Positions 1-16,845 of a stretch of 16,845 nt of DNA are shown in pieces. The position numbers and the translations under genes were made by a program. The stretch is from NCBI RefSeq assembly GCF_003334315.1, contig NZ_QOWR01000073.1; one strand, given 5' to 3'. Each line of letters begins with the position of its first letter. Within the stretch, counting starts at the first letter, position 1. The notes beneath the pieces are model-generated. The model had not been told where the DNA came from and did no database searches. It saw only the letters and a list, made by a program, of their open reading frames with translations. This DNA is from Escherichia coli (GTDB lineage: Bacteria > Pseudomonadota > Gammaproteobacteria > Enterobacterales > Enterobacteriaceae).

Positions 1-357
1 GTCGGGGCTAAATCGCGCCAGCGCTGGCTGTTTTACGCGTATGACAGGCTCCGGAAGACGGTTGTTGCGCACGTATTCGGTGAACGCACTATGGCGACGC
101 TGGGGCGTCTTATGAGCCTGCTGTCACCCTTTGACGTGGTGATATGGATGACGGATGGCTGGCCGCTGTATGAATCCCGCCTGAAGGGAAAGCTGCACGT
201 AATCAGCAAGCGATATACGCAGCGAATTGAGCGGCATAACCTGAATCTGAGGCAGCACCTGGCACGGCTGGGACGGAAGTCGCTGTCGTTCTCAAAATCG
301 GTGGAGCTGCATGACAAAGTCATCGGGCATTATCTGAACATAAAACACTATCAATAA
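1..357 (+). CDS. insB: IS1 transposase InsB, C-terminal part (5'-truncated by window edge)
   Basis: Open frame from base 1 to TAA at 355-357; the ORF-track 88 aa segment (91..357) is the in-frame tail of InsB. Confidence 0.85.
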
Positions 358-372
358 GTTGGAGTCATTACC
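1..372 (+). mobile_element. Partial IS1 insertion sequence (3' portion, including the right terminal inverted repeat; 5' part lies outside the window)
   Basis: Frame-1 translation from base 1 reads the InsB C-terminal region (...[14 protein letters not shown]...[55 protein letters not shown]...HYQ*). The sequence ends with the characteristic IS1 terminus ...aaacactatcaataagttggagtcattacc at 343-372. Recognised from memory of IS1, not by search. Confidence 0.85.
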
Positions 373-386
373 CATCGCGTCTTATT

Positions 387-470
387 GCCGGATGCGGCGT
401 GAACACCTTATCCAGCACACATCTGGCAGCGGCTATAGGTCTGATAAGACGCGTTAGCGTCGCATCAGAC
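387..470. repeat. REP/BIME element: two REP units in opposite orientation
   Basis: gccggatgcggcgtgaacaccttatccagc (387-~416) and inverted unit taggtctgataagacgcgttagcgtcgcatcagac (435-470) are typical enterobacterial REP palindromes; located between the IS1 end and the yggR stop. Confidence 0.8.
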
Positions 471-520
471 ATTTATTGCCTTTGTAGGCCCAATAAGCTT
501 GCGCATCGGGCATGGCAACG

Positions 521-1501
521 TCACAAACGCCCTTCCCCCACCCGGTGCTGATAACTCTGCTGAAACGTTATCATCCCCACCTGCTGCCCGGTTTGAATAA
601 CATGCGGTAACTGGTGGGTTTTCCCTTCGCGAATCAAATTCCCCACCGCGGGTGTGTTAATCAGCAATTCAAATAGCGCCACGCGTCCTTCCTGTTTATC
701 CACTTCCAGCTTTTGTGACAACACGGCCCGTAAACTCCCTGCCAGTTGATTACGTACGGGATCTTTTTCCTGCGCCGGAAATGAATCCACCAGTCGCTCA
801 ACTGACTGCGCGGCACCACGCGTATGTAATGTTGCCAGCACCAAATGCCCGGTTTCTGCCGCCGTCAGTGCCAGACGGATTGTCTCGCTGTCACGCAGCT
901 CTCCGAGCAAAATCACATCAGGATCTTCCCGCAATGCGGCCCGCAATCCCGATGCGAACGTCATACAGTGCAAACCAATTTCCCGCTGCTGGATCAAACA
1001 TCGCTGGCTGGCATAGAGATATTCAACAGGATCTTCCAGCGTCAGAATATGCGCATCGGCATGTTGATTGAGATAGCCAACCATCGCCGCCAGCGTGGTA
1101 GATTTGCCGCTCCCCGTCGCCCCCGTCACCAGAATCAGGCCATTCTCGCTCTTGAGTAATTCCGGCAATACCGTTGGTGCGCCAAGCTGTTCGAGCTGCG
1201 GGCAGTGCGAAGGTAACAGCCGTAACGCCAGCGAAATGCCATGCCGTTGCGCGAATGCGCTGCCACGCAATCGCTGGTTTTCCGCCAGCGACACGGCAAA
1301 ATCCAGCTGGCCATTTTCCAGCAATATTGCCCGCTGATCGTCATCCAGCCACTCCCGCAGTAGCTCTTCGACGTCCGGCGCATCAAACGGCGCAGCTTCC
1401 ATTAGCCCGCGAATGCGCCATCGTGCGGGCCAGGCGCTGCACAGGTGTAGATCCGAGACGTTATGCTTTACACTAAGGGCCACAATTTCTTCCATATTCA
1501 T
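521..1501 (-). CDS. yggR: PilT-like type IV pilus retraction ATPase family protein YggR (326 aa)
   Basis: ORF 521..1576 (-); start trimmed to MNMEEIVALSVKHNVSDLH... (ATG at 1501) because a GAGGA Shine-Dalgarno lies 7 nt upstream and the longer version would overlap yggS. Walker A motif GATGSGKST present. Confidence 0.9.
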   Translation of the reverse strand: MNMEEIVALSVKHNVSDLHLCSAWPARWRIRGLMEAAPFDAPDVEELLREWLDDDQRAILLENGQLDFAVSLAENQRLRGSAFAQRHGISLALRLLPSHCPQLEQLGAPTVLPELLKSENGLILVTGATGSGKSTTLAAMVGYLNQHADAHILTLEDPVEYLYASQRCLIQQREIGLHCMTFASGLRAALREDPDVILLGELRDSETIRLALTAAETGHLVLATLHTRGAAQSVERLVDSFPAQEKDPVRNQLAGSLRAVLSQKLEVDKQEGRVALFELLINTPAVGNLIREGKTHQLPHVIQTGQQVGMITFQQSYQHRVGEGRL

Positions 1502-1518
1502 ACTAAGATCCTCGGAAA

Positions 1519-2223
1519 ATGAACGATATTGCGCATAACCTGGCACAGGTCCGGGACAAAATCTCAGCGGCTGCAACGCGTTGCGGCCGTTCTCCAGAAG
1601 AAATTACGCTGCTTGCAGTCAGTAAAACAAAACCTGCGAGCGCCATCGCAGAAGCCATTGATGCCGGGCAGCGTCAATTTGGTGAAAACTACGTTCAGGA
1701 AGGGGTAGATAAAATTCGCCACTTTCAGGAACTGGGCGTAACAGGATTAGAATGGCATTTTATTGGCCCGTTGCAGTCTAATAAAAGCCGCCTGGTGGCA
1801 GAGCATTTCGACTGGTGTCATACCATCGACCGTTTGCGCATCGCTACCCGTCTCAACGACCAGCGCCCGGCAGAACTTCCCCCTCTTAACGTTCTGATTC
1901 AAATTAACATTAGTGATGAAAACAGTAAGTCCGGGATTCAACTGGCTGAACTGGACGAGCTGGCAGCTGCGGTCGCTGAACTACCGCGTTTACGTCTGCG
2001 CGGGTTGATGGCAATCCCTGCGCCTGAGTCAGAATATGTAAGGCAGTTTGAAGTTGCACGCCAAATGGCTGTAGCATTTGCCGGACTGAAAACGCGCTAC
2101 CCGCATATCGACACGCTCTCTCTGGGAATGTCGGACGATATGGAAGCCGCCATTGCGGCAGGTAGCACGATGGTTCGTATCGGCACTGCAATTTTTGGTG
2201 CGCGTGATTACTCTAAAAAATAA
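1519..2223 (+). CDS. yggS: PLP homeostasis protein (YggS/PLPBP family, alanine racemase-fold PLP-binding)
   Basis: 234 aa ORF MNDIAHNLAQVRDKISAAA...; conserved lysine-containing N-terminal motif LLAVSKTKP; start only 17 bp from the divergent yggR start. Confidence 0.9.
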   Translation: MNDIAHNLAQVRDKISAAATRCGRSPEEITLLAVSKTKPASAIAEAIDAGQRQFGENYVQEGVDKIRHFQELGVTGLEWHFIGPLQSNKSRLVAEHFDWCHTIDRLRIATRLNDQRPAELPPLNVLIQINISDENSKSGIQLAELDELAAAVAELPRLRLRGLMAIPAPESEYVRQFEVARQMAVAFAGLKTRYPHIDTLSLGMSDDMEAAIAAGSTMVRIGTAIFGARDYSKK

Positions 2224-2240
2224 GGAATTAAAGGAACGCC

Positions 2241-2807
2241 ATGAATACGTTGACTTTCCTGCTTTCAACGGTCATTGAGCTGTATACCATGGTGCTGTTA
2301 TTACGCATCTGGATGCAGTGGGCTCATTGTGATTTTTACAACCCCTTCTCACAGTTTGTAGTGAAGGTAACGCAGCCAATTATCGGGCCACTGCGCCGCG
2401 TTATTCCGGCAATGGGGCCAATTGACAGCGCCTCGCTGCTGGTTGCCTATATTCTCAGTTTTATCAAAGCCATCGTGCTGTTTAAAGTGGTGACCTTCCT
2501 GCCAATCATCTGGATTGCCGGTTTACTGATTCTGCTGAAAACCATCGGCCTGCTGATTTTCTGGGTCCTGCTGGTGATGGCGATTATGAGCTGGGTAAGC
2601 CAAGGGCGTAGCCCGATTGAATACGTGCTGATTCAGCTGGCCGATCCGCTGCTGCGCCCGATTCGCCGCCTGCTACCGGCAATGGGTGGGATTGATTTCT
2701 CGCCGATGATCCTCGTTCTGCTGCTGTATGTCATCAATATGGGTGTCGCAGAAGTATTACAGGCAACCGGAAATATGCTGCTGCCAGGGCTGTGGATGGC
2801 GTTATGA
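2241..2807 (+). CDS. yggT: YggT family integral membrane protein
   Basis: 188 aa hydrophobic ORF with a duplicated YGGT-type repeat; 17 bp after the yggS stop with GGAA SD-like sequence. Confidence 0.88.
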
Positions 2808-3094
2808 ATGCCGTAACAGTTAATGATGACGGTCTGGTTTTACGGCTCTATATTCAGCCGAAAGCCAGCCGTGATTCTATTGTCGGTTTACATGGCGACG
2901 AAGTTAAAGTCGCCATTACCGCGCCGCCGGTTGACGGCCAGGCCAACAGCCATCTGGTGAAGTTTCTCGGTAAGCAATTCCGGGTAGCCAAAAGCCAGGT
3001 GGTAATTGAAAAAGGCGAACTTGGCCGCCACAAACAAATTAAAATCATTAATCCGCAACAAATCCCGCCAGAAATCGCGGCGTTAATTAATTAG
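2804..3094 (+). CDS. yggU: DUF167 family protein YggU (96 aa)
   Basis: ORF 2792..3094; start assigned to ATG 2804 ([24 protein letters not shown]...), which overlaps the yggT stop as ATGA. Confidence 0.85.
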
Positions 3095-3101
3095 GTATCC
3101 T

Positions 3102-3695
3102 ATGCAAAAAGTTGTCCTCGCAACCGGCAATGCCGGTAAAGTGCGTGAGCTGGCGTCGCTGCTTAGCGACTTCGGTCTTGATATCGTGGCCCAAACAGAC
3201 CTCGGCGTAGATTCCGCTGAAGAAACCGGCCTGACCTTTATCGAAAACGCGATTCTGAAAGCGCGCCATGCGGCAAAAGTGACCGGTTTACCGGCAATTG
3301 CCGACGACTCTGGTCTGGCGGTAGATGCGCTGGGTGGCGCGCCGGGTATTTACTCCGCGCGTTATTCCGGTGAAGACGCGACCGATCAAAAGAATCTGCA
3401 AAAACTGTTGGAAACACTGAAAGACGTACCGGACGACCAACGTCAGGCGCGTTTCCACTGCGTGCTGGTATATCTGCGTCACGCGGAAGATCCCACTCCG
3501 CTGGTGTGCCACGGTAGCTGGCCGGGCGTGATTACTCGTGAACCAGCGGGCACTGGTGGCTTTGGTTATGATCCAATCTTCTTCGTACCTTCCGAAGGGA
3601 AAACCGCTGCCGAACTGACCCGCGAAGAAAAGAGCGCCATTTCCCACCGTGGTCAGGCATTGAAACTGCTGTTGGACGCTTTACGTAATGGTTAA
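3102..3695 (+). CDS. rdgB: dITP/XTP pyrophosphatase (non-canonical purine NTPase, Ham1/RdgB family)
   Basis: 197 aa [19 protein letters not shown]...; family motifs TGNxGK and FGYDPIF present. Confidence 0.92.
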
Positions 3696-4824
3696 ATTAC
3701 CGCCGCTGAGTCTCTACATTCACATCCCGTGGTGCGTGCAGAAATGCCCGTACTGCGATTTCAACTCTCACGCGTTGAAAGGAGAAGTGCCGCACGACGA
3801 TTACGTTCAGCATCTGCTTTGCGATCTGGACAATGATGTGGCTTACGCTCAGGGCCGTGAAGTAAAGACAATCTTTATTGGCGGTGGTACGCCGAGCCTG
3901 CTTTCCGGCCCGGCGATGCAAACGCTGCTGGACGGCGTGCGTGCGCGTTTGCCGCTGGCAGCGGATGCAGAAATTACTATGGAAGCGAACCCTGGTACGG
4001 TAGAAGCCGATCGCTTTGTCGATTATCAGCGTGCTGGTGTGAACCGCATCTCTATTGGTGTGCAGAGTTTTAGCGAAGAAAAGCTGAAACGACTTGGGCG
4101 CATTCATGGCCCGCAAGAAGCGAAACGAGCGGCAAAGCTGGCGAGCGGTTTAGGGTTACGTAGCTTTAACCTTGATTTGATGCATGGACTACCGGATCAA
4201 TCACTGGAAGAGGCGCTTGGCGATCTACGCCAGGCCATTGAACTGAATCCGCCGCATCTTTCCTGGTATCAACTGACCATCGAACCCAATACGCTGTTTG
4301 GTTCGCGACCACCGGTGCTGCCGGACGACGACGCGCTGTGGGATATATTCGAACAGGGGCATCAGTTATTAACCGCAGCGGGTTATCAGCAATATGAAAC
4401 TTCCGCTTACGCCAAACCCAGTTATCAGTGCCAGCACAATCTCAACTACTGGCGCTTTGGCGACTACATCGGTATTGGCTGCGGCGCGCACGGCAAAGTG
4501 ACCTTCCCGGATGGGCGCATTCTGCGTACCACTAAAACGCGTCATCCGCGTGGTTTTATGCAAGGAAGGTATCTGGAAAGCCAGCGTGATGTCGAAGCCG
4601 CAGATAAGCCGTTTGAGTTCTTTATGAACCGCTTTCGCTTGCTGGAGGCCGCGCCACGCGCAGAGTTTAGTGCGTATACCGGGCTTTGCGAAGATGTGAT
4701 TCGCCCACAGTTAGACGAGGCGATTGCCCAGGGTTATCTCACCGAATGTGCGGATTACTGGCAGATAACGGAACATGGGAAGCTGTTTTTAAATTCGCTG
4801 CTGGAGCTTTTTCTGGCTGAGTAA
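3688..4824 (+). CDS. hemW: Radical SAM family heme chaperone HemW (coproporphyrinogen III oxidase-like)
   Basis: 378 aa ORF with a CxxxCxYC radical-SAM cluster motif (CVQKCPYC); start overlaps the rdgB 3' end by 8 nt. Confidence 0.9.
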
Positions 4825-4833
4825 ACTTGTATT

Positions 4834-4952
4834 GCCGGATGCGGCGTGAACGCCTTATCCAGCCGACATGTGGCAGCGGTTGTAGGTCTGATAAGACGCG
4901 CAAGCGTCGCATCAGACGTTGATTGCCGGATGCGGGGTCAACGCCGCATCCT
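4834..4952. repeat. REP/BIME cluster (three REP-like palindromic units)
   Basis: gccggatgcggcgtgaacgccttatccagc (4834-~4863), inverted unit taggtctgataagacgcgcaagcgtcgcatcagac (4881-~4916), third unit gccggatgcggggtcaacgccgcatcc (4925-~4951). Lies between the convergent hemW and yggM 3' ends. Confidence 0.8.
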
Positions 4953-4978
4953 GCTACAAATCGTGCACTATATCAAAC

Positions 4979-5986
4979 TTACTTAATCACCCCATTGCGC
5001 CGCAGTTGTTCGGTATCTTTTTTCCAGCGTTCATTAGCTTGGTTGATATCGTCAATTTTCATCAAAATCGCGACTTTTTTACTGTTTATTTCTGAAACTT
5101 TCATCGTTAACGGATATTGCCCTTTTTCGAGCGTTACCCAGTCATCCTGCAATTTACGGCTGAGTTTTTGTGATTGCAGAAAAGTCTGTCGCCGTTGTTC
5201 GTTGATATCGAAATCTCGTTTCTGCTGAATCGGCACTTCATAACACTCTTCACTCTGTTTATGACATGCCGCAATCGCCGGTTGATAAACCTCTTTGTCA
5301 TATTTAACCGCGAACGCCTCGCTATCGTTCTGTTTATTAAACTCATCACGCTGTTGGTGAATTTTTTTAAAGGCTTCTTCACGGGTCATTTGCTTACCGT
5401 TTGCATCTTTTCCCCAATATGCATCCGCTGCTTTCTGCGCCGCCACCATTTGCTTATCAAGCGCTTTCACTTCCTTTTCCAGCGCAGGAATCGAGTTCTT
5501 CTGGGTATTCAACGCAGATTCAAGCTGACTAAAGCGATAATTGAAATCTTCGCTATTCACGATCAGATATTTATTATTCGTTTTGATATCGTCGACCACC
5601 CGCCCACGATCGCTGGCTGCCGCCTGAAAAGAGTAAAAGTTCACCGACCAGCCAGACGCGGGCGTTCCTTTACTGGTTAACATCGCCGAGAATTTTACCG
5701 GTTTATCTTTCGTCCAGGTCTGTTCGAGCAGTTCGTAATCTGCCAACTGACCGACCCAGGTATAGAGATCGTCACTGGAAGAGACATCGCCTTCCGCTGA
5801 CCAGGTGGCCTGATTACCCTTAGCATCAAGATTTTTTAAGGTGATAGCATCAAGCTTGAGAATGCCGTGATACTGCTTTTTGAATTGATCTTTTAAGATA
5901 TTTTCAGTTGGCGGTTCGCCATCTGCCCAGACATTACCAGTCATCAACATAAGCAGCGCCGTGCCAACAATCCATTGCTTTTTCAC
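4979..5986 (-). CDS. yggM: Secreted protein of unknown function YggM (DUF1202-like), N-terminal signal peptide
   Basis: 335 aa ORF MKKQWIVGTALLMLMTGNVWADGEPP...; signal peptide with an AxA-type cleavage site (VWA/DG); K/E/Q-rich, probably coiled-coil C-terminal half. Confidence 0.85.
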   Translation of the reverse strand: MKKQWIVGTALLMLMTGNVWADGEPPTENILKDQFKKQYHGILKLDAITLKNLDAKGNQATWSAEGDVSSSDDLYTWVGQLADYELLEQTWTKDKPVKFSAMLTSKGTPASGWSVNFYSFQAAASDRGRVVDDIKTNNKYLIVNSEDFNYRFSQLESALNTQKNSIPALEKEVKALDKQMVAAQKAADAYWGKDANGKQMTREEAFKKIHQQRDEFNKQNDSEAFAVKYDKEVYQPAIAACHKQSEECYEVPIQQKRDFDINEQRRQTFLQSQKLSRKLQDDWVTLEKGQYPLTMKVSEINSKKVAILMKIDDINQANERWKKDTEQLRRNGVIK

Positions 5987-6067
5987 CCGAAAACCCTCGC
6001 GCAGAATAATTTATTCCGGTGATTATCATTAGGGTAATTAAAATTGGCAATGGACGTGAGTCTGAAG

Positions 6068-6094
6068 TGAAAAAGCCCCGGCACGATACCGGGG
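6068..6094 (-). terminator. Rho-independent terminator downstream of ansB
   Basis: Minus-strand transcript carries hairpin ccccggtatcgtgccgggg (perfect 7 bp GC-rich stem, plus coordinates 6076-6094) followed by cttttt, starting about 8 nt after the ansB stop. Confidence 0.7.
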
Positions 6095-6102
6095 CGAGGC
6101 GA

Positions 6103-7149
6103 TTAGTACTGATTGAAGATCTGCTGGATCTGCTGCGGATCTTTGGTTTGCGTCAGAGCCAGTTGCAGCAGAACGCGCGCTTTTTGCGGGTTCAGCGTGC
6201 CAGAGGCGACGAAGCCGTATTTCGCATCATCCACTTCGGCATCCTGAGTGGTAGCGCCCGTCGGTACGCGGGAAGAACGCACGACTGCAGTACCGGTTTT
6301 CGCGGCGGTCGCCAGCGTGTCGAACACAGATTTATACAGGTTGCCGTTACCCACACCAGCGCTAACGATGCCATCATAGCCCGCATCTACCAGTGCTTTA
6401 GCCGGAAGATCGGATGCGTTAGCGTAGTTATAAACAATGCCGACTTTCGGCAGTTCATTCAGCTTAGAGACATCGAATGGCGTGTCGCTGGTATGCTTAC
6501 GTGCCGGGGTACGCTGGTAGTCAATCTTACCGTTGTGAATGTAACCCAGAGGACCGTAGTTAACAGACTTGAAGGTCGCTACGTCGGTGGTGTTGGTTTT
6601 GGTGACGTCACGGCCATCAAGCACGGTGTCATTCATCACTACCAGCACGCCACGGTTGGCGGAGGCTTTATCAGCTGCGGTCACTACCGCGTTATACAGG
6701 TTGAATGGACCGTCTGCGCTCATGGACGTGGACGGGCGCATTGCGCCGACCATCACCACCGGTTTGTCGCATTTCACCGTCAGGTCGAGGAAGTAAGCGG
6801 TTTCTTCCATCGTGTCGGTACCGTGGGTAATGACGAAGCCGTCGGTTTTATCGCAGTCGGTGTTAATTTTTTTCGCCAGTGTCAGCCAGACATTATCGTT
6901 CATGTCCTGGGAGCCGATATTCACTACCTGCTCGCCTTTAACGTTCGCAATGTCCTTCAGTTGCGGCACCGCATTAACCAGATTTTCTACGCCAACTTTA
7001 CCCGCTGTGTAGTTAGATTTGGTTGCGGAGTCACCACCACCGGCAATGGTCCCGCCGGTTGCTAAAATGGTGATATTGGGTAATGCCAATGCTGCACCAC
7101 TAAAACCCATAACCAGTGCGGCAAGTGCCGTCTTTTTGAAAAACTCCAT
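6103..7149 (-). CDS. ansB: Periplasmic L-asparaginase II
   Basis: 348 aa ORF MEFFKKTALAALVMGFSGAALALPNITILATGGTIAGGG...; signal peptide followed by the asparaginase active-site motif TGGTIAG. Confidence 0.95.
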   Translation of the reverse strand: MEFFKKTALAALVMGFSGAALALPNITILATGGTIAGGGDSATKSNYTAGKVGVENLVNAVPQLKDIANVKGEQVVNIGSQDMNDNVWLTLAKKINTDCDKTDGFVITHGTDTMEETAYFLDLTVKCDKPVVMVGAMRPSTSMSADGPFNLYNAVVTAADKASANRGVLVVMNDTVLDGRDVTKTNTTDVATFKSVNYGPLGYIHNGKIDYQRTPARKHTSDTPFDVSKLNELPKVGIVYNYANASDLPAKALVDAGYDGIVSAGVGNGNLYKSVFDTLATAAKTGTAVVRSSRVPTGATTQDAEVDDAKYGFVASGTLNPQKARVLLQLALTQTKDPQQIQQIFNQY

Positions 7150-7179
7150 TTCATTCCTCCAGTTACGTGAACGCTACGC

Positions 7180-7220
7180 ATTATCCCTTAGCTTTGTATG
7201 GGAAAATTGACGTTAAACAA
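7180..7220 (-). promoter_or_regulatory. ansB promoter: FNR-like site (7207-7220) plus -10 hexamer (7180-7185)
   Basis: On the coding strand TTGTTTAACGTCAA matches the FNR consensus TTGAT-N4-ATCAA at 8/10 positions; GATAAT lies about 21-26 bp downstream, the spacing expected for a class II site centred near -41.5. ansB is known to be anaerobically induced by FNR (established knowledge); the site assignment itself is by eye. Confidence 0.55.
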
Positions 7221-7255
7221 TTTACAACATGAATATATTTTGGAGATCTACAAAG

Positions 7256-7271
7256 TTAGAGGCAGGTAACA
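7256..7271 (-). promoter_or_regulatory. Possible weak CRP/FNR-type upstream site of the ansB promoter
   Basis: Coding-strand TGTTAcctgccTCTAA, about 50 bp upstream of the FNR-like site (expected -91.5 geometry); poor match to TGTGA-N6-TCACA. Confidence 0.3.
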
Positions 7272-7285
7272 AAACGAAGAATTAA

Positions 7286-7310
7286 ACGGCATAAAAAAGT
7301 ATTATGCCGT
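7286..7310 (-). terminator. Putative terminator downstream of yggN
   Basis: Inverted repeat acggcataa/ttatgccgt (9 bp stem, 7 nt loop) about 15 nt beyond the yggN stop; on the minus strand it is followed by a moderately T-rich tract (ttaattcttcgtttt). Confidence 0.4.
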
Positions 7311-7324
7311 CTTAAAATAGAGGA

Positions 7325-8044
7325 TTATTTTAAATTCCCGACCAGGGCTTTGCGGCTATCTTCCAGAGTCACAACGCGGCTACAAACATCTTTGCCAAAC
7401 TGCTGGAAATCTTTTTCCTGCTTTTTCCACTCGGTTTGGATTGAGGATTGCAGCCCCCCCAGGCTTCCCAGCACATTCTGTAATGGGTTACCGCCGCTTT
7501 TCAGCACCGCTTTCGCGCCCATTTCATTAATGCTGTCCTGTAAAATTCCACCCATTGCCTGATTCACTAATTGCTGGCCTTCGGCGCGAACCTGATCAAT
7601 GGCTTTATAGTGAAACGTCAGGCCATCGCTGCGCGTTTCAATAATGCGGTTCATCTGCTCTTTCAGCTGCGCATCAAGTTTGGTCAGACGGCTGCGCATT
7701 TTGCTGCTTTCGCCCATCTCCTGAACGATAATTTTATCCAGAGCAATACGGGCTTTCTCGACGCGGCTTTTCGCGCCTTCATCAATCCACGGCAGCGTGC
7801 TGCGTAGTTCAGCCTGATAATCCTTCGCCTGCTCGCGCTGGGCGGCATTCAGGGAATATTGCTTACCGTTATACATCACGTTGCCGTCTGGCGTGATCAC
7901 CAGATTGCCGTTTTCGCCCTTCACCTGCACGGTTTGCGGGCTGACAATCACATCGTCACGCGGCGTGACGTTGCACTGGTAGTCGGCGTGAGCGGTCATT
8001 GCCGTCACTGAAAGTGCTGCCGCCAGCAGCATTTTGCGCATCAT
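7325..8044 (-). CDS. yggN: Secreted protein of unknown function YggN (DUF2884-like), N-terminal signal peptide
   Basis: 239 aa ORF MMRKMLLAAALSVTAMTAHADYQCN...; signal peptide; good SD (GAGGGAAG) upstream. Confidence 0.85.
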   Translation of the reverse strand: MMRKMLLAAALSVTAMTAHADYQCNVTPRDDVIVSPQTVQVKGENGNLVITPDGNVMYNGKQYSLNAAQREQAKDYQAELRSTLPWIDEGAKSRVEKARIALDKIIVQEMGESSKMRSRLTKLDAQLKEQMNRIIETRSDGLTFHYKAIDQVRAEGQQLVNQAMGGILQDSINEMGAKAVLKSGGNPLQNVLGSLGGLQSSIQTEWKKQEKDFQQFGKDVCSRVVTLEDSRKALVGNLK

Positions 8045-8116
8045 AGTCTTCCCTCAAGAAAAAATCAGGCCAGCATTTGCTGGCCCCAGATTGATAACAA
8101 AGTACGCGTTTTCCAT

Positions 8117-8195
8117 GCCGGATGCGGCGTAAACACCTTATCCCGCCTACTCGATCGTGCATCTTTCCAGGCCTGATAAGCGTAGCGCATCAGGC
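8117..8195. repeat. REP/BIME element (two REP units in opposite orientation)
   Basis: gccggatgcggcgtaaacaccttatcccgcctac (8117-8150) and gcctgataagcgtagcgcatcaggc (8171-8195); between the yggL 3' end and the yggN 5' end. Confidence 0.8.
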
Positions 8196-8227
8196 AGTTT
8201 TGCATTTGTCATCGCCCGTATGCTTTC

Positions 8228-8554
8228 TTAGTCCCACCAAACGTCGAAAAGTTCGCTGGTGCGTACCTCATCCAGTTTGCGCTCTTCCAGCCACTTACGC
8301 ACAATCGCCTGATGTTCTTCGGTGCATTTGCCGATTTCCTGCATGCAGATCAGACCTTCCCAGGCCAGATAACCGCTGCCGTCAAAGGCCAGTTTGTTCG
8401 GTTCGATAACCTCGTTAATAAAATCATCAACGGTTTTATCAATCTGTTCTTCCGATGTACCTTCCGGGAATCGCCATGCCACCGAAAATCCTAATTCCTG
8501 GAATTCGTCGATGTGCATTTTTTTACGCAGACGACGGCTACGGTTCTTTGCCAT
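8228..8554 (-). CDS. yggL: DUF469 family protein YggL (108 aa)
   Basis: ORF 8228..8584; start trimmed to [23 protein letters not shown]... (ATG 8554-8552), which overlaps the trmB stop as TAATG. Confidence 0.85.
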   Translation of the reverse strand: MAKNRSRRLRKKMHIDEFQELGFSVAWRFPEGTSEEQIDKTVDDFINEVIEPNKLAFDGSGYLAWEGLICMQEIGKCTEEHQAIVRKWLEERKLDEVRTSELFDVWWD

Positions 8555-9273
8555 TATTTCACCCTCTCGAACATTAAGTCCCATACTCCGTGACCAAGAC
8601 GATGACCACGTTGTTCAAATTTCGTCACCGGACGTGATGCCGGACGCGGTACGTAATCATTGCTCTCTGACAGGTTTTTATAACCGTCAATAGAAGACAT
8701 CACTTCAAGCATATGTTCCGCATAAGGTTCCCAGTCGGTCGCCATATGGAATACGCCCCCCAGCTGCAGTTTGCTTTTTACCAGTTCGGCAAACGGCACC
8801 TGAACGATACGGCGTTTATTATGGCGCGCTTTGTGCCACGGGTCAGGGAAAAAGAGCTGCACCATGCGCAATGAATTGTCAGGAATCATTTTATGCAGCA
8901 CTTCAACCGCATCGTGACACATCACGCGCAGGTTGCTTAAACCTTCTTCATGCGCAGAAGCCAGGCACGCACCAACGCCCGGTGAATGCACTTCAATGCC
9001 GAGGAAGTCCTGCTCAGGGCGATCTTTAGCCATTGCCACCAGCGACGCCCCCATGCCAAAACCAATCTCAAGCGTCACCGGCGCTTCACGGCCAAAAAGC
9101 GCGGGGAAATCCAGCATATCTTCGCTGAACTCAACGCCCATCACCGGCCAGTAGTTTTCCAGCGCATGTTCCTGGCCTTTGGTCAGTCGCCCCTGGCGGC
9201 GCACAAAACTACGGATACGGCGCAGTGGGCGGCCGTTTTCATCAAATTCCGGTGAAATGACGTCGTTTTTCAT
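8554..9273 (-). CDS. trmB: tRNA (guanine46-N7)-methyltransferase
   Basis: 239 aa [46 protein letters not shown]...; SAM-binding motif region EIGFGMG. Confidence 0.92.
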
Positions 9274-9433
9274 AAAGGTTTAGTCGCTTGTGAAAGTGTT
9301 CTGAAAACGGGCATTATCCAAAGTTAGTTGCCGGATGCAAGCATGATAAGGCCGTGGCTGCGGAAAGTTCCGGTTTACACCCTGCCGTCGCTGTGCTGCA
9401 ATCTTGCCCCCAACAACAGTGAATTCGGTGACC

Positions 9434-10486
9434 ATGCAAGCGTCGCAATTTTCAGCCCAGGTTCTGGACTGGTACGATAAATACGGGCGAAAAACTCTGC
9501 CCTGGCAAATTGACAAGACGCCCTACAAAGTATGGCTCTCAGAAGTGATGTTGCAACAAACTCAGGTTGCGACCGTTATCCCCTATTTTGAACGCTTTAT
9601 GGCGCGCTTCCCGACGGTGACCGATCTCGCCAATGCGCCGCTCGACGAAGTTCTCCACTTGTGGACCGGGCTTGGCTATTACGCCCGCGCGCGCAATCTG
9701 CATAAAGCGGCACAACAAGTGGCGACCTTACACGGCGGTAAATTCCCGGAAACCTTTGAGGAAGTTGCAGCACTGCCGGGCGTCGGGCGTTCCACCGCAG
9801 GCGCGATTCTCTCGCTTTCTCTGGGTAAGCACTTTCCGATTCTCGACGGTAACGTCAAACGGGTGCTGGCGCGCTGCTATGCTGTAAGCGGCTGGCCAGG
9901 GAAAAAAGAGGTCGAGAATAAATTATGGAGTTTGAGCGAGCAGGTGACGCCCGCGGTTGGCGTGGAACGGTTTAATCAGGCGATGATGGATTTGGGTGCG
10001 ATGATTTGTACGCGCTCGAAACCGAAATGTTCGCTCTGTCCGCTACAAAACGGATGTATTGCCGCCGCCAACAATAGCTGGGCGCTTTATCCGGGCAAAA
10101 AACCGAAACAGACGCTGCCGGAGCGCACCGGCTACTTTTTGCTATTACAGCACGAAGATGAAGTATTGCTGGCGCAGCGTCCGCCGAGCGGATTGTGGGG
10201 CGGTTTATACTGTTTCCCGCAGTTTGCCGACGAAGAAAGTTTGCGGCAGTGGCTGGCGCAACGGCAGATTGCTGCCGATAACCTGACGCAACTGACCGCG
10301 TTTCGGCATACCTTCAGCCATTTCCACTTAGATATTGTGCCTATGTGGCTTCCCGTGTCGTCATTCACCGGCTGCATGGATGAAGGCAATGCGCTCTGGT
10401 ATAACTTAGCGCAACCGCCGTCAGTTGGCCTGGCGGCTCCCGTGGAGCGTTTGTTACAGCAGTTACGCACTGGCGCGCCGGTTTAG
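9434..10486 (+). CDS. mutY: Adenine DNA glycosylase (A/G-specific) MutY, 350 aa
   Basis: ORF 9404..10486; start trimmed to [25 protein letters not shown]...; helix-hairpin-helix region and [4Fe-4S] cysteine cluster ([17 protein letters not shown]) present. Confidence 0.92.
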
Positions 10487-10510
10487 CGCGTGAGTCGATA
10501 AAGAGGATGA

Positions 10511-10789
<279 letters not shown>

Positions 10790-10795
10790 AAACAG

Positions 10796-10816
10796 TGCCG
10801 GAGCACGCCTCCGGCA
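10796..10816 (+). other. Stem-loop between yggX and mltC (no U-tract)
   Basis: tgccggag-cacgc-ctccggca, perfect 8 bp stem, 7 nt after the yggX stop; followed by aacttgcataaaaac rather than a T-run, so not a canonical intrinsic terminator. Confidence 0.4.
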
Positions 10817-10826
10817 ACTTGCATAA

Positions 10827-11933
<1,107 letters not shown>

Positions 11934-11944
11934 TTCCATTAACC

Positions 11945-11966
11945 GCCCCTGACGATGCTCAGGGGC
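11945..11966 (+). other. Stem-loop immediately downstream of mltC
   Basis: gcccctga-cgatgc-tcaggggc (8 bp stem), 11 nt after the mltC stop, followed by aaaaatg (no U-tract): possible weak terminator or RNA processing/stability element. Confidence 0.35.
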
Positions 11967-11971
11967 AAAAA

Positions 11972-11987
11972 TGTTATCCACATCACA
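11972..11987 (+). promoter_or_regulatory. Candidate CRP-binding site in the nupG upstream region
   Basis: TGTTAtccacaTCACA matches TGTGA-N6-TCACA at 9/10 positions, about 150 bp upstream of the nupG start. nupG is a known CRP/CytR-regulated gene (established knowledge); this site assignment is by eye. Confidence 0.45.
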
Positions 11988-12134
11988 ATTTCGTTTTGCA
12001 AATTGGGAATGTTTGCAATTATTTGCCACAGGTAACAAAAAACCAGTCCGCGAAGTTGATAGAATCCCATCATCTCGCACGGTCAAATGTGCTTTTTCAA
12101 ACACTCATCCGCATCACGATGTGAGGAAATTAAC

Positions 12135-13391
12135 ATGAATCTTAAGCTGCAGCTGAAAATCCTCTCTTTTCTGCAGTTCTGTCTGTGGGGAAGTTGGCTG
12201 ACGACCCTCGGTTCCTATATGTTTGTTACCCTGAAGTTTGACGGTGCTTCTATTGGCGCAGTTTATAGCTCACTGGGTATCGCCGCGGTCTTTATGCCTG
12301 CGCTGCTGGGGATTGTGGCCGACAAATGGTTAAGTGCGAAATGGGTATATGCCATTTGCCACACCATTGGCGCTATCACGCTGTTCATGGCGGCACAGGT
12401 CACGACGCCGGAGGCGATGTTCCTTGTGATATTGATTAACTCGTTTGCTTATATGCCAACGCTTGGGTTAATCAACACCATCTCTTACTATCGCCTGCAA
12501 AATGCCGGGATGGATATCGTTACTGACTTCCCGCCAATCCGTATCTGGGGCACCATCGGCTTTATCATGGCAATGTGGGTGGTGAGCCTGTCTGGCTTCG
12601 AATTAAGCCACATGCAGCTGTATATTGGCGCAGCTCTTTCCGCCGTTCTGGTTCTGTTTACCCTGACTCTGCCGCATATTCCGGTTGCTAAACAGCAAGC
12701 GAATCAGAGCTGGACAACCCTGCTGGGCCTCGATGCATTCGCGCTGTTTAAAAACAAGCGTATGGCAATCTTCTTCATCTTCTCAATGCTGCTGGGCGCG
12801 GAACTGCAGATTACCAACATGTTCGGTAATACCTTCCTGCACAGCTTCGACAAAGATCCGATGTTTGCCAGCAGCTTCATCGTGCAGCATGCGTCAATCA
12901 TCATGTCGATTTCGCAGATCTCTGAAACCCTGTTCATTCTGACCATCCCGTTCTTCTTAAGCCGCTACGGTATTAAGAACGTAATGATGATCAGTATTGT
13001 GGCGTGGATCCTGCGTTTTGCGCTGTTTGCTTACGGCGACCCGACTCCGTTCGGTACTGTACTGCTGGTACTGTCGATGATCGTTTACGGTTGCGCATTC
13101 GACTTCTTCAACATCTCTGGTTCGGTGTTTGTCGAAAAAGAAGTTAGCCCGGCAATTCGCGCCAGTGCACAAGGGATGTTCCTGATGATGACTAACGGCT
13201 TCGGCTGTATCCTCGGCGGCATCGTGAGCGGTAAAGTTGTTGAGATGTACACCCAAAACGGCATTACCGACTGGCAGACCGTATGGTTGATTTTCGCTGG
13301 TTACTCCGTGGTTCTGGCCTTCGCGTTCATGGCGATGTTCAAATATAAACACGTTCGTGTCCCGACAGGTACACAGACGGTTAGCCACTAA
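12135..13391 (+). CDS. nupG: Nucleoside:H+ symporter NupG (MFS-type transporter), 418 aa
   Basis: ORF 12087..13391; start trimmed to MNLKLQLKILSFLQFCLWGSWLTTLG... (ATG 12135) with SD gaggaa 8 nt upstream; 12-TM hydrophobic profile. Confidence 0.92.
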   Translation: MNLKLQLKILSFLQFCLWGSWLTTLGSYMFVTLKFDGASIGAVYSSLGIAAVFMPALLGIVADKWLSAKWVYAICHTIGAITLFMAAQVTTPEAMFLVILINSFAYMPTLGLINTISYYRLQNAGMDIVTDFPPIRIWGTIGFIMAMWVVSLSGFELSHMQLYIGAALSAVLVLFTLTLPHIPVAKQQANQSWTTLLGLDAFALFKNKRMAIFFIFSMLLGAELQITNMFGNTFLHSFDKDPMFASSFIVQHASIIMSISQISETLFILTIPFFLSRYGIKNVMMISIVAWILRFALFAYGDPTPFGTVLLVLSMIVYGCAFDFFNISGSVFVEKEVSPAIRASAQGMFLMMTNGFGCILGGIVSGKVVEMYTQNGITDWQTVWLIFAGYSVVLAFAFMAMFKYKHVRVPTGTQTVSH

Positions 13392-13401
13392 TTACGCAAA
13401 G

Positions 13402-13437
13402 AAAAACGGGTCGCCAGAAGGTGACCCGTTTTTTTTA
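13402..13437. terminator. Bidirectional rho-independent terminator between convergent nupG and speC
   Basis: aaaaa-acgggtcgcc-agaa-ggtgacccgt-tttttttt: 10 bp stem (one G.U), 4 nt loop, A-tract 5' and T-tract 3', so it reads as a terminator on both strands. Confidence 0.85.
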
Positions 13438-13440
13438 TTC

Positions 13441-15576
13441 TTACTTCAACACATAACCGTACAACCGTTTCATGCCATCCGCATCGGTTTCGCTATAAAC
13501 ACCTTGCAGCTCCGGCGAAAATCCCGGCAACAAATTCACCCCTTCTTCCAGTGCAAGGAAATAACGTTGAACCGCCCCACCCCAGACTTCCCCGGGTACC
13601 ACGCAAAGCACGCCAGGTGGATAAGGCAACGCCCCTTCTGCCGCAATTCGCCCTTCGGCATCACGAATCCGCACCAACTCCACGTCACCGCGAATATAAG
13701 CGCTATGCGCATCCTGGGGGTTCATCACCACTGACGGGAAACTCTGCTGGCGGAACATCGCTTTTTGTAGGTCTTTGACGTCGAAACTGACATACAGATC
13801 GTGCATCTCCTGACACAACTGGCGCAGGGTGTAGTCGCGATAGCGCACCGGATACTTGTTATAAACGCTCGGCAACACCTCAACCAGCGGCGAGTCATCC
13901 TCAATATGCTGTTCAAATTGCGCCAGCATCGCCACCAGTTGTGCCAGCTTCTCGTGGCTTTCCGCCGGAGTTAATAAAAACAGAATGGAGTTGAGATCGC
14001 ACTTCTCCGGCACAATGCCGTTCTCACGCAGATAGTGCGCCAGAATCGTCGCCGGAACGCCAAAGTCGCTATATTCGCCGGTTTCGGCATCGATACCTGG
14101 TGTAGTGAGTAACAGCTTGCACGGATCAACAAAATACTGATCCGCGGCATATCCTTCAAAGCCGTGCCACTTCGCCCCCGGCTCAAAACTGAAAAAACGG
14201 CGGTCGCTGGCTAACACTGATGTCGGATAATCCTGCCACAATTTGCCATCAACAACGGGCGGGATAAACGGGCGGAACAGCTTACAGCGCGCAAGAATAG
14301 CCTTGCGCGCTTCAATCCCTATCTCAACACACTCAGCCCACAGCCGACGCCCACTCTCCCCTTCATGAATTTTGGCGTTAACATCCAGTGCAGCAAACAG
14401 CGGATAGAAAGGGCTGGTAGAAGCATGGAGCATAAAGGCGTTATTCAACCGCTTATGCGGGCAAAAACGCGCCTGTCCGCGGATATGGTTATCTTTTTTA
14501 TGGATCTGCGACGTCTGTGAGAATCCCGCCTGCTGTTTGTGCACCGACTGAGTCACAAAGATCCCCGGATCGTTTTCGTTAAGTTCTAACAGCAGCGGCG
14601 AGCTATCCGCCATCATCGGGATAAATTGTTCATAACCGACCCACGCGGAATCAAACAGAATGTAATCACACAGATGCCCAACGGTATCGATCACCTGACG
14701 GGCGTTATAGACAGTGCCGTCATAGGTTCCCAGCTGAATAATCGCCAGGCGATACGGGCGCGGCAGGTCGGCTTTTTCTGGCGCAACGTCGCGAATTTGC
14801 TGGCGCAGATACTCTTCATTAAAACAGTGCGCATCAATACCGCCAATGAAACCAAACGGGTTGCGTGAAGCTTCCAGATAGACCGGCGTCGCCCCCGCCT
14901 GAATCAGCGCGCCGTGATGATTCGACTTATGGTTGTTACGGTCGAAGAGCACCAGATCGCCACGCGTTAACAGCGCATTCGTCACCACTTTATTCGCTGC
15001 CGATGTGCCGTTCAGCACAAAATAGGTTTTATCGGCATGAAAGACTTTGGCTGCGAATTTCTGCGCATCTTTCGCCGATCCTTCATGAATAAGCAGATCG
15101 CCCAATTTTACGTCAGCGTTACACATATCGGCGCGAAAGACGTTCTCACCAAAGAAATCGTAAAAATGGCGTCCGGCAGGATGCTTTTTAAAAAACGCAC
15201 CATGTTGATGTCCAGGGCAAGCAAAGGTGCTGTTGCCCATCTCAACGTACTGCGTCAGCGTGTCATAAAACGGTGGCAGCAAATTCTCTTCATACTGACA
15301 GGCTGCGGATTCCAGCTCCAGCCACTGCTGCTCGTTGCCGTTGATTACCGCCGTAACGCCCGCAGGTAATTCAACAGCATGTTTGGAATACAAAAACACC
15401 GGTAGATGAAAACCGGTGCGCTTAAGCAACGCAAGAATGCCACTGCGACTATCCGCAGCGGTAATGACGACTGCCGCGACGTCCGTAAAATCAGTATCTC
15501 CCAACGCCACCACGCGACGATGAGAAGAAAGTCGGGATACCAGTTCACTACTGGCGGCAATATTCATTGATTTCAT
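13441..15576 (-). CDS. speC: Ornithine decarboxylase (constitutive/biosynthetic type), 711 aa
   Basis: ORF 13441..15636; start trimmed to MKSMNIAASSELVSRLSSHRRVVALGDTDF... (ATG 15576); Orn/Lys/Arg decarboxylase family with a PLP-lysine region. Confidence 0.9.
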   Translation of the reverse strand: MKSMNIAASSELVSRLSSHRRVVALGDTDFTDVAAVVITAADSRSGILALLKRTGFHLPVFLYSKHAVELPAGVTAVINGNEQQWLELESAACQYEENLLPPFYDTLTQYVEMGNSTFACPGHQHGAFFKKHPAGRHFYDFFGENVFRADMCNADVKLGDLLIHEGSAKDAQKFAAKVFHADKTYFVLNGTSAANKVVTNALLTRGDLVLFDRNNHKSNHHGALIQAGATPVYLEASRNPFGFIGGIDAHCFNEEYLRQQIRDVAPEKADLPRPYRLAIIQLGTYDGTVYNARQVIDTVGHLCDYILFDSAWVGYEQFIPMMADSSPLLLELNENDPGIFVTQSVHKQQAGFSQTSQIHKKDNHIRGQARFCPHKRLNNAFMLHASTSPFYPLFAALDVNAKIHEGESGRRLWAECVEIGIEARKAILARCKLFRPFIPPVVDGKLWQDYPTSVLASDRRFFSFEPGAKWHGFEGYAADQYFVDPCKLLLTTPGIDAETGEYSDFGVPATILAHYLRENGIVPEKCDLNSILFLLTPAESHEKLAQLVAMLAQFEQHIEDDSPLVEVLPSVYNKYPVRYRDYTLRQLCQEMHDLYVSFDVKDLQKAMFRQQSFPSVVMNPQDAHSAYIRGDVELVRIRDAEGRIAAEGALPYPPGVLCVVPGEVWGGAVQRYFLALEEGVNLLPGFSPELQGVYSETDADGMKRLYGYVLK

Positions 15577-15973
15577 AAGCGCAAACCCGTTTCGGGGAAG
15601 TAAGAATACCGGACAAGGTGGAAAACCCTGCCCCATGAGATATGGGTCAAACTGGTCACCAGCTCCGACCGCCAGACATCAGTAAAAGCAGAAACGCTCT
15701 GATTTTACTGTTGTCCTGCAGTGAGCGTGCGTTAACTTCACCGCATGAGCAGTAACATAGAAAGGGAAACGTTTCGCGCGAAACGGCGATAAGCGAGAGA
15801 ATGTAAGGAGATGGCGTGCATCGGGCAAACTCCGTACAGAGAGGAGAAAATTCGCGCAATCATGGCACCTTTCGCTAAAGCGTGCAAGCCAGGACTTTGC
15901 GAACAAACAAGCCATCGACGGCACCAAACGGTCATAATAAGAAAATCAAACAATACAGTTAACAGGAACTCTT

Positions 15974-16681
15974 GTGGTCATCGGCCCTTTTATCAACGCT
16001 AGTGCAGTATTACTGGGTGGCGTTCTCGGCGCACTGCTCAGCCAACGCTTACCGGAACGTATCCGCGTCTCCATGACATCTATTTTTGGTCTGGCATCGC
16101 TGGGGATTGGTATTTTACTAGTGGTGAAATGTGCCAACCTTCCAGCGATGGTTTTAGCTACGCTACTTGGCGCTCTAATTGGCGAAATTTGTTTGCTGGA
16201 GAAAGGTGTCAATACAGCAGTCGCCAAAGCACAAAATCTGTTTCGTCACTCACGTAAGAAGCCAGCGCATGAATCTTTTATTCAGAATTATGTCGCGATT
16301 ATTGTCCTGTTTTGCGCCAGCGGCACCGGGATCTTCGGGGCGATGAACGAAGGGATGACCGGCGATCCGAGTATTTTAATCGCCAAGTCATTTCTTGATT
16401 TCTTTACGGCGATGATCTTCGCCTGCTCGCTGGGTATTGCGGTATCGGTGATTAGTATCCCATTACTGATCATCCAGTTAACGCTGGCGTGGGCTGCCGC
16501 GCTGATTTTACCGCTGACCACACCGTCGATGATGGCAGACTTCAGCGCCGTAGGCGGTTTATTGCTGCTGGCAACCGGATTACGCATCTGTGGCATTAAA
16601 ATGTTCCCGGTGGTCAACATGCTTCCAGCACTCCTTCTGGCAATGCCGCTTTCCGCCGCCTGGACCGCCTGGTTTGCCTGA
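15974..16681 (+). CDS. yqgA: DUF554 family inner membrane protein YqgA
   Basis: 235 aa hydrophobic [25 protein letters not shown]...; apparent GTG start (no in-frame ATG between the upstream stop at 15938-15940 and 15974) with SD agga 6 nt upstream. Confidence 0.85.
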
Positions 16682-16747
16682 CAATGCGTGCAATATCGGC
16701 AAAGTGATGATAGATTGTGCAGTCTGCAGTAAATTGAAGAAATTTGA

Positions 16748-16776
16748 TTGACGAGACGAGGCGAATCAGGTTTAAT
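16748..16776 (+). promoter_or_regulatory. Sigma70 promoter of the tRNA-Phe gene
   Basis: -35 TTGACG (16748-16753), 17 bp spacer, -10 TTTAAT (16771-16776), followed by GC-rich discriminator gcgcccc typical of stringently controlled stable-RNA promoters; positioned about 10 bp upstream of the tRNA 5' end. Confidence 0.6.
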
Positions 16777-16786
16777 GCGCCCCGTT

Positions 16787-16845
16787 GCCCGGATAGCTCA
16801 GTCGGTAGAGCAGGGGATTGAAAATCCCCGTGTCCTTGGTTCGAT
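16787..16845 (+). tRNA. pheV: tRNA-Phe (anticodon GAA), 5' 59 nt; 3' end truncated by the window
   Basis: GCCCGGATAGCTCAGTCGGTAGAGCAGGGGATTGAAAATCCCCGTGTCCTTGGTTCGAT: acceptor/D-arm/anticodon loop (cuGAAaa) and start of the T-arm (GGTTCGAT). Assigned as pheV rather than pheU from the yqgA-adjacent context. Confidence 0.9.

Follow-up and report, generated by a model that had tools for sequence, protein, structure and literature searches.

The window, a 16,845-nucleotide stretch of an Escherichia coli contig, opens inside an IS1 element whose tip lies at position 372, and from position 373 onward it is collinear with the E. coli core chromosome. The join between the two is best explained by a simple insertion of IS1 into the gap that separates ruvX from its convergent neighbor yggR, a reading to which we give a probability of roughly 85%. 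Under this reading a canonical 768-bp, IS1A-like IS1 would have transposed into the non-coding ruvX-yggR spacer in one E. coli lineage, its insA-insB direction being the same as that of ruvX and its right terminal inverted repeat (IRR) lying towards yggR. The features of the window are collected in Table 1.

Alignment of the IS1 portion of the window to the IS1A of K-12 (768 bp) showed one mismatch and no gaps (371/372 bases, 99.7% identity), a comparison that covers the right-hand 372 bases of the element (IS1 397-768) only. The C-terminal 118 codons of insB occupy positions 1-354 and the insB stop lies at 355-357. When translated, positions 1-357 matched the NCBIfam profile NF033558 (transpos_IS1) with 112.5 bits, the cut-off being 100 bits, over profile positions 107-199 of 199, and positions 350-372 are the exact reverse complement of the IS1-family terminal repeat GGTAATGACTCCAACTTATTGAT. 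The element is thus a member of the IS1 family on two counts, its DDE transposase (the InsB part of InsAB', of which the window holds the C-terminal 118 codons) and its terminal repeat. Sequence shared with IS-free E. coli chromosomes starts at exactly 373. The original prediction had the window starting within IS1, with the end of the element at 372 and about 150 bp from the yggR stop; the alignment agrees, and the measured distance is 148 bp. The IS1A of K-12 shares its insB C-terminus, its stop and its 23-bp IRR with the window element, but it occupies another chromosomal site, and K-12 is without IS1 between ruvX and yggR.

Table 1. Features of the window, with the evidence for each
Feature	Position	Strand	Evidence or remark
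IS1 3' part (IS1A positions 397-768)	1..372	+	K-12 IS1A alignment and NF033558
IS1 right terminal inverted repeat (IRR), 23 bp, ATCAATAAGTTGGAGTCATTACC	350..372	+	Direct reading; same as IS1A end
CATCGCGTC, first 9 bp of target DNA	373..381	.	Putative right-hand copy of the target-site duplication, if the insertion was simple
REP unit 1 of the ruvX-yggR BIME	387..417	+	Consensus halves, 2 substitutions; sub-threshold naRNA4 match at 377-417
REP unit 2, inverse to unit 1	438..470	-	Consensus halves, 2 substitutions; predicted hairpin
REP unit 3, short, degenerate	~484..512	-	Read directly; hairpin in predicted fold
yggR, PilT/PilU-family ATPase gene, intact, 326 codons and stop	521..1501	-	Translation; RefSeq annotation of identical region
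Genes after yggR: yggS, yggT, yggU, rdgB, hemW, yggM, ansB, yggN, yggL, trmB, mutY, yggX, mltC, nupG, speC, yqgA			
tRNA-Phe gene pheV, first 59 bases, at the window end	16787-16845		

Alignment of the flank with K-12 places the insertion point 35 bp beyond the stop of ruvX and 148 bp short of that of yggR. K-12, in which the site is empty, reads ...GGCGGAGTGTAAATAATAT/CATCGCGTCTTATTGCCGG..., with the slash at the insertion point. The 9 bp that adjoin the element in the window are present as a single copy in the empty sites of K-12 and of strain S171-1, where the A+T-only run TAAATAATAT immediately precedes them, so that the target is the border of a 10-bp run composed of A and T only. Two published studies give 8- or 9-bp target duplications as typical of IS1 (PMC12428005, PMC5009759), and in the latter a preference of IS1 for A+T-rich and non-coding DNA is described (PMC5009759). 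As judged from the sequence, the target site agrees with these preferences. K-12 annotation bears out the statement in the original prediction that the convergent gene ruvX adjoins yggR there, and ruvX was the convergent neighbor of yggR in every other genome context examined, among them all 16 public loci inspected for the exact YggR or YggN protein.

The ruvX-yggR intergenic region is a BIME region of 183 bp (equivalent to positions 2966-3148 of the S171-1 locus), placed between the stops of the two convergent genes. Its units are imperfect palindromes of the REP consensus, with units 1 and 2 on opposite strands, and the window holds several further REPs, at 4834-4954 (including 4834-4864) and, after yggN, at 8117-8147. 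The rigid fixed-loop REP consensus found no match, and units 1 and 2 were recognized from the consensus halves. An inverted repeat (434-452/457-475) coincides with unit 2, and the REP-derived Rfam family naRNA4 gave a second sub-threshold match at 438-542. The statement that a REP/BIME followed IS1 immediately holds insofar as a REP cluster is the next feature, although a gap of 14 bp separates the element from the first REP. With two consensus-like inverse units and one degenerate unit, the spacer contains nothing unusual for BIME/REP clusters. The REP pair in the hemW-yggM spacer (4885-4955) scored 60.9 bits with naRNA4, above the Rfam gathering threshold. Exact copies of the 326-amino-acid YggR product occur on thousands of public contigs. 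The yggM position, which lies between ansB and hemW, is altered in two other genomes that share this YggN allele; one has an IS3-family (rve) transposase gene there (12186-13399) and the other has no called gene (11943-13997), which suggests that yggM was disrupted independently in the two.

Many complete E. coli chromosomes are virtually identical to window positions 373-16845. The best relative, S171-1 (NZ_CP058725.1), differs at 2 of these 16,473 bases, one at 492 (intergenic, in REP unit 3) and one at 2603 (A for G, synonymous in yggT). At 492 the strain has A and its relatives G, a change that weakens the consensus tail of REP unit 3. With one difference intergenic and the other synonymous, the window contains no protein allele that is private to the strain. 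The ruvX-BIME-yggR spacer of S171-1 is uninterrupted and free of IS1. We take the host to be a commensal E. coli that resembles phylogroup A, an assignment that is our own reading. A Shigella origin, prompted by the IS1 load, was rejected, since the flank is only 2 mismatches in 16.5 kb away from commensal and animal E. coli isolates.

The junction itself was found nowhere else. A megablast search with the IS1-flank junction (window 300-520) gave no match in 5,426 complete E. coli genomes, and the left junction predicted for a simple insertion was likewise found in none of the 5,426. Scans for the exact 40-base junction gave no hit in the GTDB species-representative genomes or in the JGI metagenome contigs, and the products of the two small junction-spanning ORFs (34 and 32 aa) had no exact record in the public collection. 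Look-ups of exact products in that collection returned 5300 blocks for YggR, 3940 for YggN and 1055 for the partial InsB, and among the 30 loci examined from them, taken from the longest contigs, none had the junction. The original prediction of a strain-specific insertion is thus supported by the complete genomes, and the synteny comparison it proposed, once run, showed ruvX next to yggR without IS1 in the nearest of them. Since the junction is missing from the 5,426 genomes, the GTDB representatives and the JGI metagenomes, the copy is strain-specific; these comparisons indicate that it is confined to the source strain or to a narrow clone, and that it is recent relative to the 2-SNP divergence from the relatives. 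The site is free of IS1 in all relatives, which argues that the junction was made by transposition and not by recombination between old copies.

Other mobile elements have entered the same spacer. E. coli B2 (NZ_CP082327.1) has an IS1 there (2353-3120 of the locus examined) with both junctions visible, a perfect 9-bp duplication, CAGACATTT, and an intact ruvX. Like the window element it is an IS1-family element within the 183-bp BIME region, but it lies 88 bp nearer to yggR, past REP unit 2, in the opposite orientation, and it is a different IS1 variant with the IRR GGTAGTGACTCC... These differences indicate that the two insertions are independent events. Two further complete genomes, STK39-3-E and EC529, matched in the same pattern as B2 and probably have the same spacer IS1. 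In E. coli Z142-3 (NZ_CP159694.1) the ruvX-yggR BIME contains a transposase gene of IS621 (locus positions 4065-5045). This too is a mobile element between ruvX and yggR, but of a different family, IS110. IS621 is a REP-targeting element, whereas the window IS1 is situated outside the REP units and gives no indication that REPs were its target. We considered REP-specific targeting by IS1 and rejected it, since 14 bp separate the element from the first REP and the other spacer IS1 sits at a different position.

In five genomes the left end of an IS1 abuts REP-like DNA, apparently at other loci (the matches covered 81-82% of the synthetic junction query, at 87% identity), so the adjacency of IS1 and BIME is not unique to the ruvX-yggR site. 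Queries of 161 bp and 801 bp that contain REPs also matched additional places in some genomes. A query running from ruvX to yggR had matches in all 5,426 genomes, end to end in the sampled matches except for the last two. About a third of the genomes (~1,750 of the 5,426) cease to resemble the K-12-type spacer a short way past the end of ruvX, the point of divergence being 9 bp past the stop in most of the sampled matches and 47 bp past it in two. From these alignments the polymorphism of the spacer looks like typical BIME turnover.

The abrupt start of the window within IS1 has parallels in the public records. The partial InsB of 118 aa that begins at window base 1 accounts for all 1,055 blocks mentioned above. 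Seven unrelated NCBI assemblies have contigs that start at exactly IS1 position 397, with flanks that are all different, and one of these contigs is 4.88 Mb long. One Broad scaffold (9641-10372) has IS1 positions 1-261 followed by 100 N and then by positions 397-768. These records indicate that the same 135 bases of IS1 (262-396) are repeatedly excised from public records, whatever the assembler; our guess is that a contaminant or vector screen at submission cuts them out. Given this recurrent loss, the left edge of the window is a record edge and not biology, and the opening of the window at IS1 position 397 should not be taken as a biological breakpoint. The remaining left half of the element and its flank probably lie on a separate contig of that assembly, which would end with IS1 positions 1-261 (...GGCGTTGGATGCCGGGCAAC).

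If the insertion was simple, the remainder of IS1, positions 1-396 with the left inverted repeat, insA and the A6C frameshift site, would stand to the left of the window, and beyond it would come another copy of CATCGCGT(C) and the genes ruvX-yqgE-gshB. The left inverted repeat (IRL) would be preceded by ...GGCGGAGTGTAAATAATATCATCGCGT(C), and then ruvX, and the ruvX 3' flank to the left of the element would end ...TAAATAATATCATCGCGT(C). Four lines of evidence favor this reading over rearrangement, two of which, the sequence of the pheV-side IS1 and the essentiality of ruvX, are given with the alternative below. The independent spacer IS1 of B2, a plain insertion, has its 9-bp duplication and an intact ruvX. 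In addition, IS insertions outnumber IS recombinations about eightfold (758 versus 98) in mutation-accumulation lines (PMC5009759).

The chief alternative is that the IS1 marks a rearrangement breakpoint, made by duplicative inversion or by later IS1-IS1 recombination, in which case ruvX would not be the left neighbor. The original prediction had raised this possibility; nothing we found favors it, the indirect evidence leans to plain insertion, and we regard it as unlikely. It owes its place here to the sequence left of the IS1, which lies outside the window, and to the pheV region of S171-1. Behind pheV that strain has an integrase, then a full IS1 within a 133-bp IS1 remnant, and then gss (19415-22064), an arrangement that is a tiny, IS1-eroded pheV island. 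The full IS1 (21164-21931) lies by gss in inverse orientation, 1.7 kb past pheV and ~18.8 kb away from the window insertion point. In its concrete form the alternative is therefore an inversion of the ~18.8-kb yggR-pheV-integrase segment between the window IS1 and the IS1 behind pheV. When we worked through the Shapiro model, a duplicative inversion from the pheV-side IS1 would leave the IRR adjoining yggR, the arrangement seen in the window. Replicative transposition is the main reported mode of IS1 movement within the chromosome, with inversions also possible (PMC12428005), and a bias of transposition to nearby targets has been noted (PMC5009759).

The agreement in orientation has a 50:50 expectation, however, and an IRR that faces yggR fits insertion and inversion alike, so orientation decides nothing. 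The full IS1 in the S171-1 pheV island differs from the window IS1 at 7 of 372 bases and is therefore unlikely to be the donor, while the 133-bp remnant, although identical to the window IS1, lacks a left end and therefore cannot transpose. A deletion extending leftward from the element is implausible as well, since it would remove ruvX, which is reported to be essential in E. coli.

A related and somewhat less probable idea is that the window IS1 and an inverted IS1 behind pheV, as in S171-1, bracket the ~18.8-kb yggR-...-speC-yqgA-pheV-integrase block as a composite, IS1-bounded segment that could be inverted or mobilized, or has been already. If this doubtful arrangement were real, the window would be the interior of such a segment and not plain chromosome.

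Least probable of all, and very improbable in our view, is an assembly or record artefact in which a chimeric IS1 read-through was joined to the yggR flank with no real IS1 at the site: the first base of the window already results from a record artefact, since numerous public contigs of unrelated origin start at the same IS1 base, and the junction occurs in no second record among the complete genomes, GTDB representatives and JGI metagenomes, but the join falls at the exact last base of the IRR, at a typical IS1 target by an A+T run, which is a signature of transposition, whereas mis-joins occur within shared repeats rather than at an element's exact tip.

For a simple insertion, the consequences for the host are expected to be slight. 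The element would lie downstream of both convergent genes and interrupt neither, so the insertion should be close to neutral, and probably no phenotype is to be expected. At most, transcription that reads through from ruvX would enter IS1 in place of the REP hairpins, and any read-out from IS1 past the IRR would be antisense to yggR. Loss of an intrinsic terminator of ruvX through the insertion was considered and dismissed, since no intrinsic terminator was predicted in the empty ruvX-yggR spacer. A literature search for IS1 at yggR returned nothing relevant. The insertion appears to be a routine event that represents canonical IS1 behavior already known in kind, and the private copy could be of use as a strain marker or a substrate for later IS1-IS1 recombination, but hardly beyond that.
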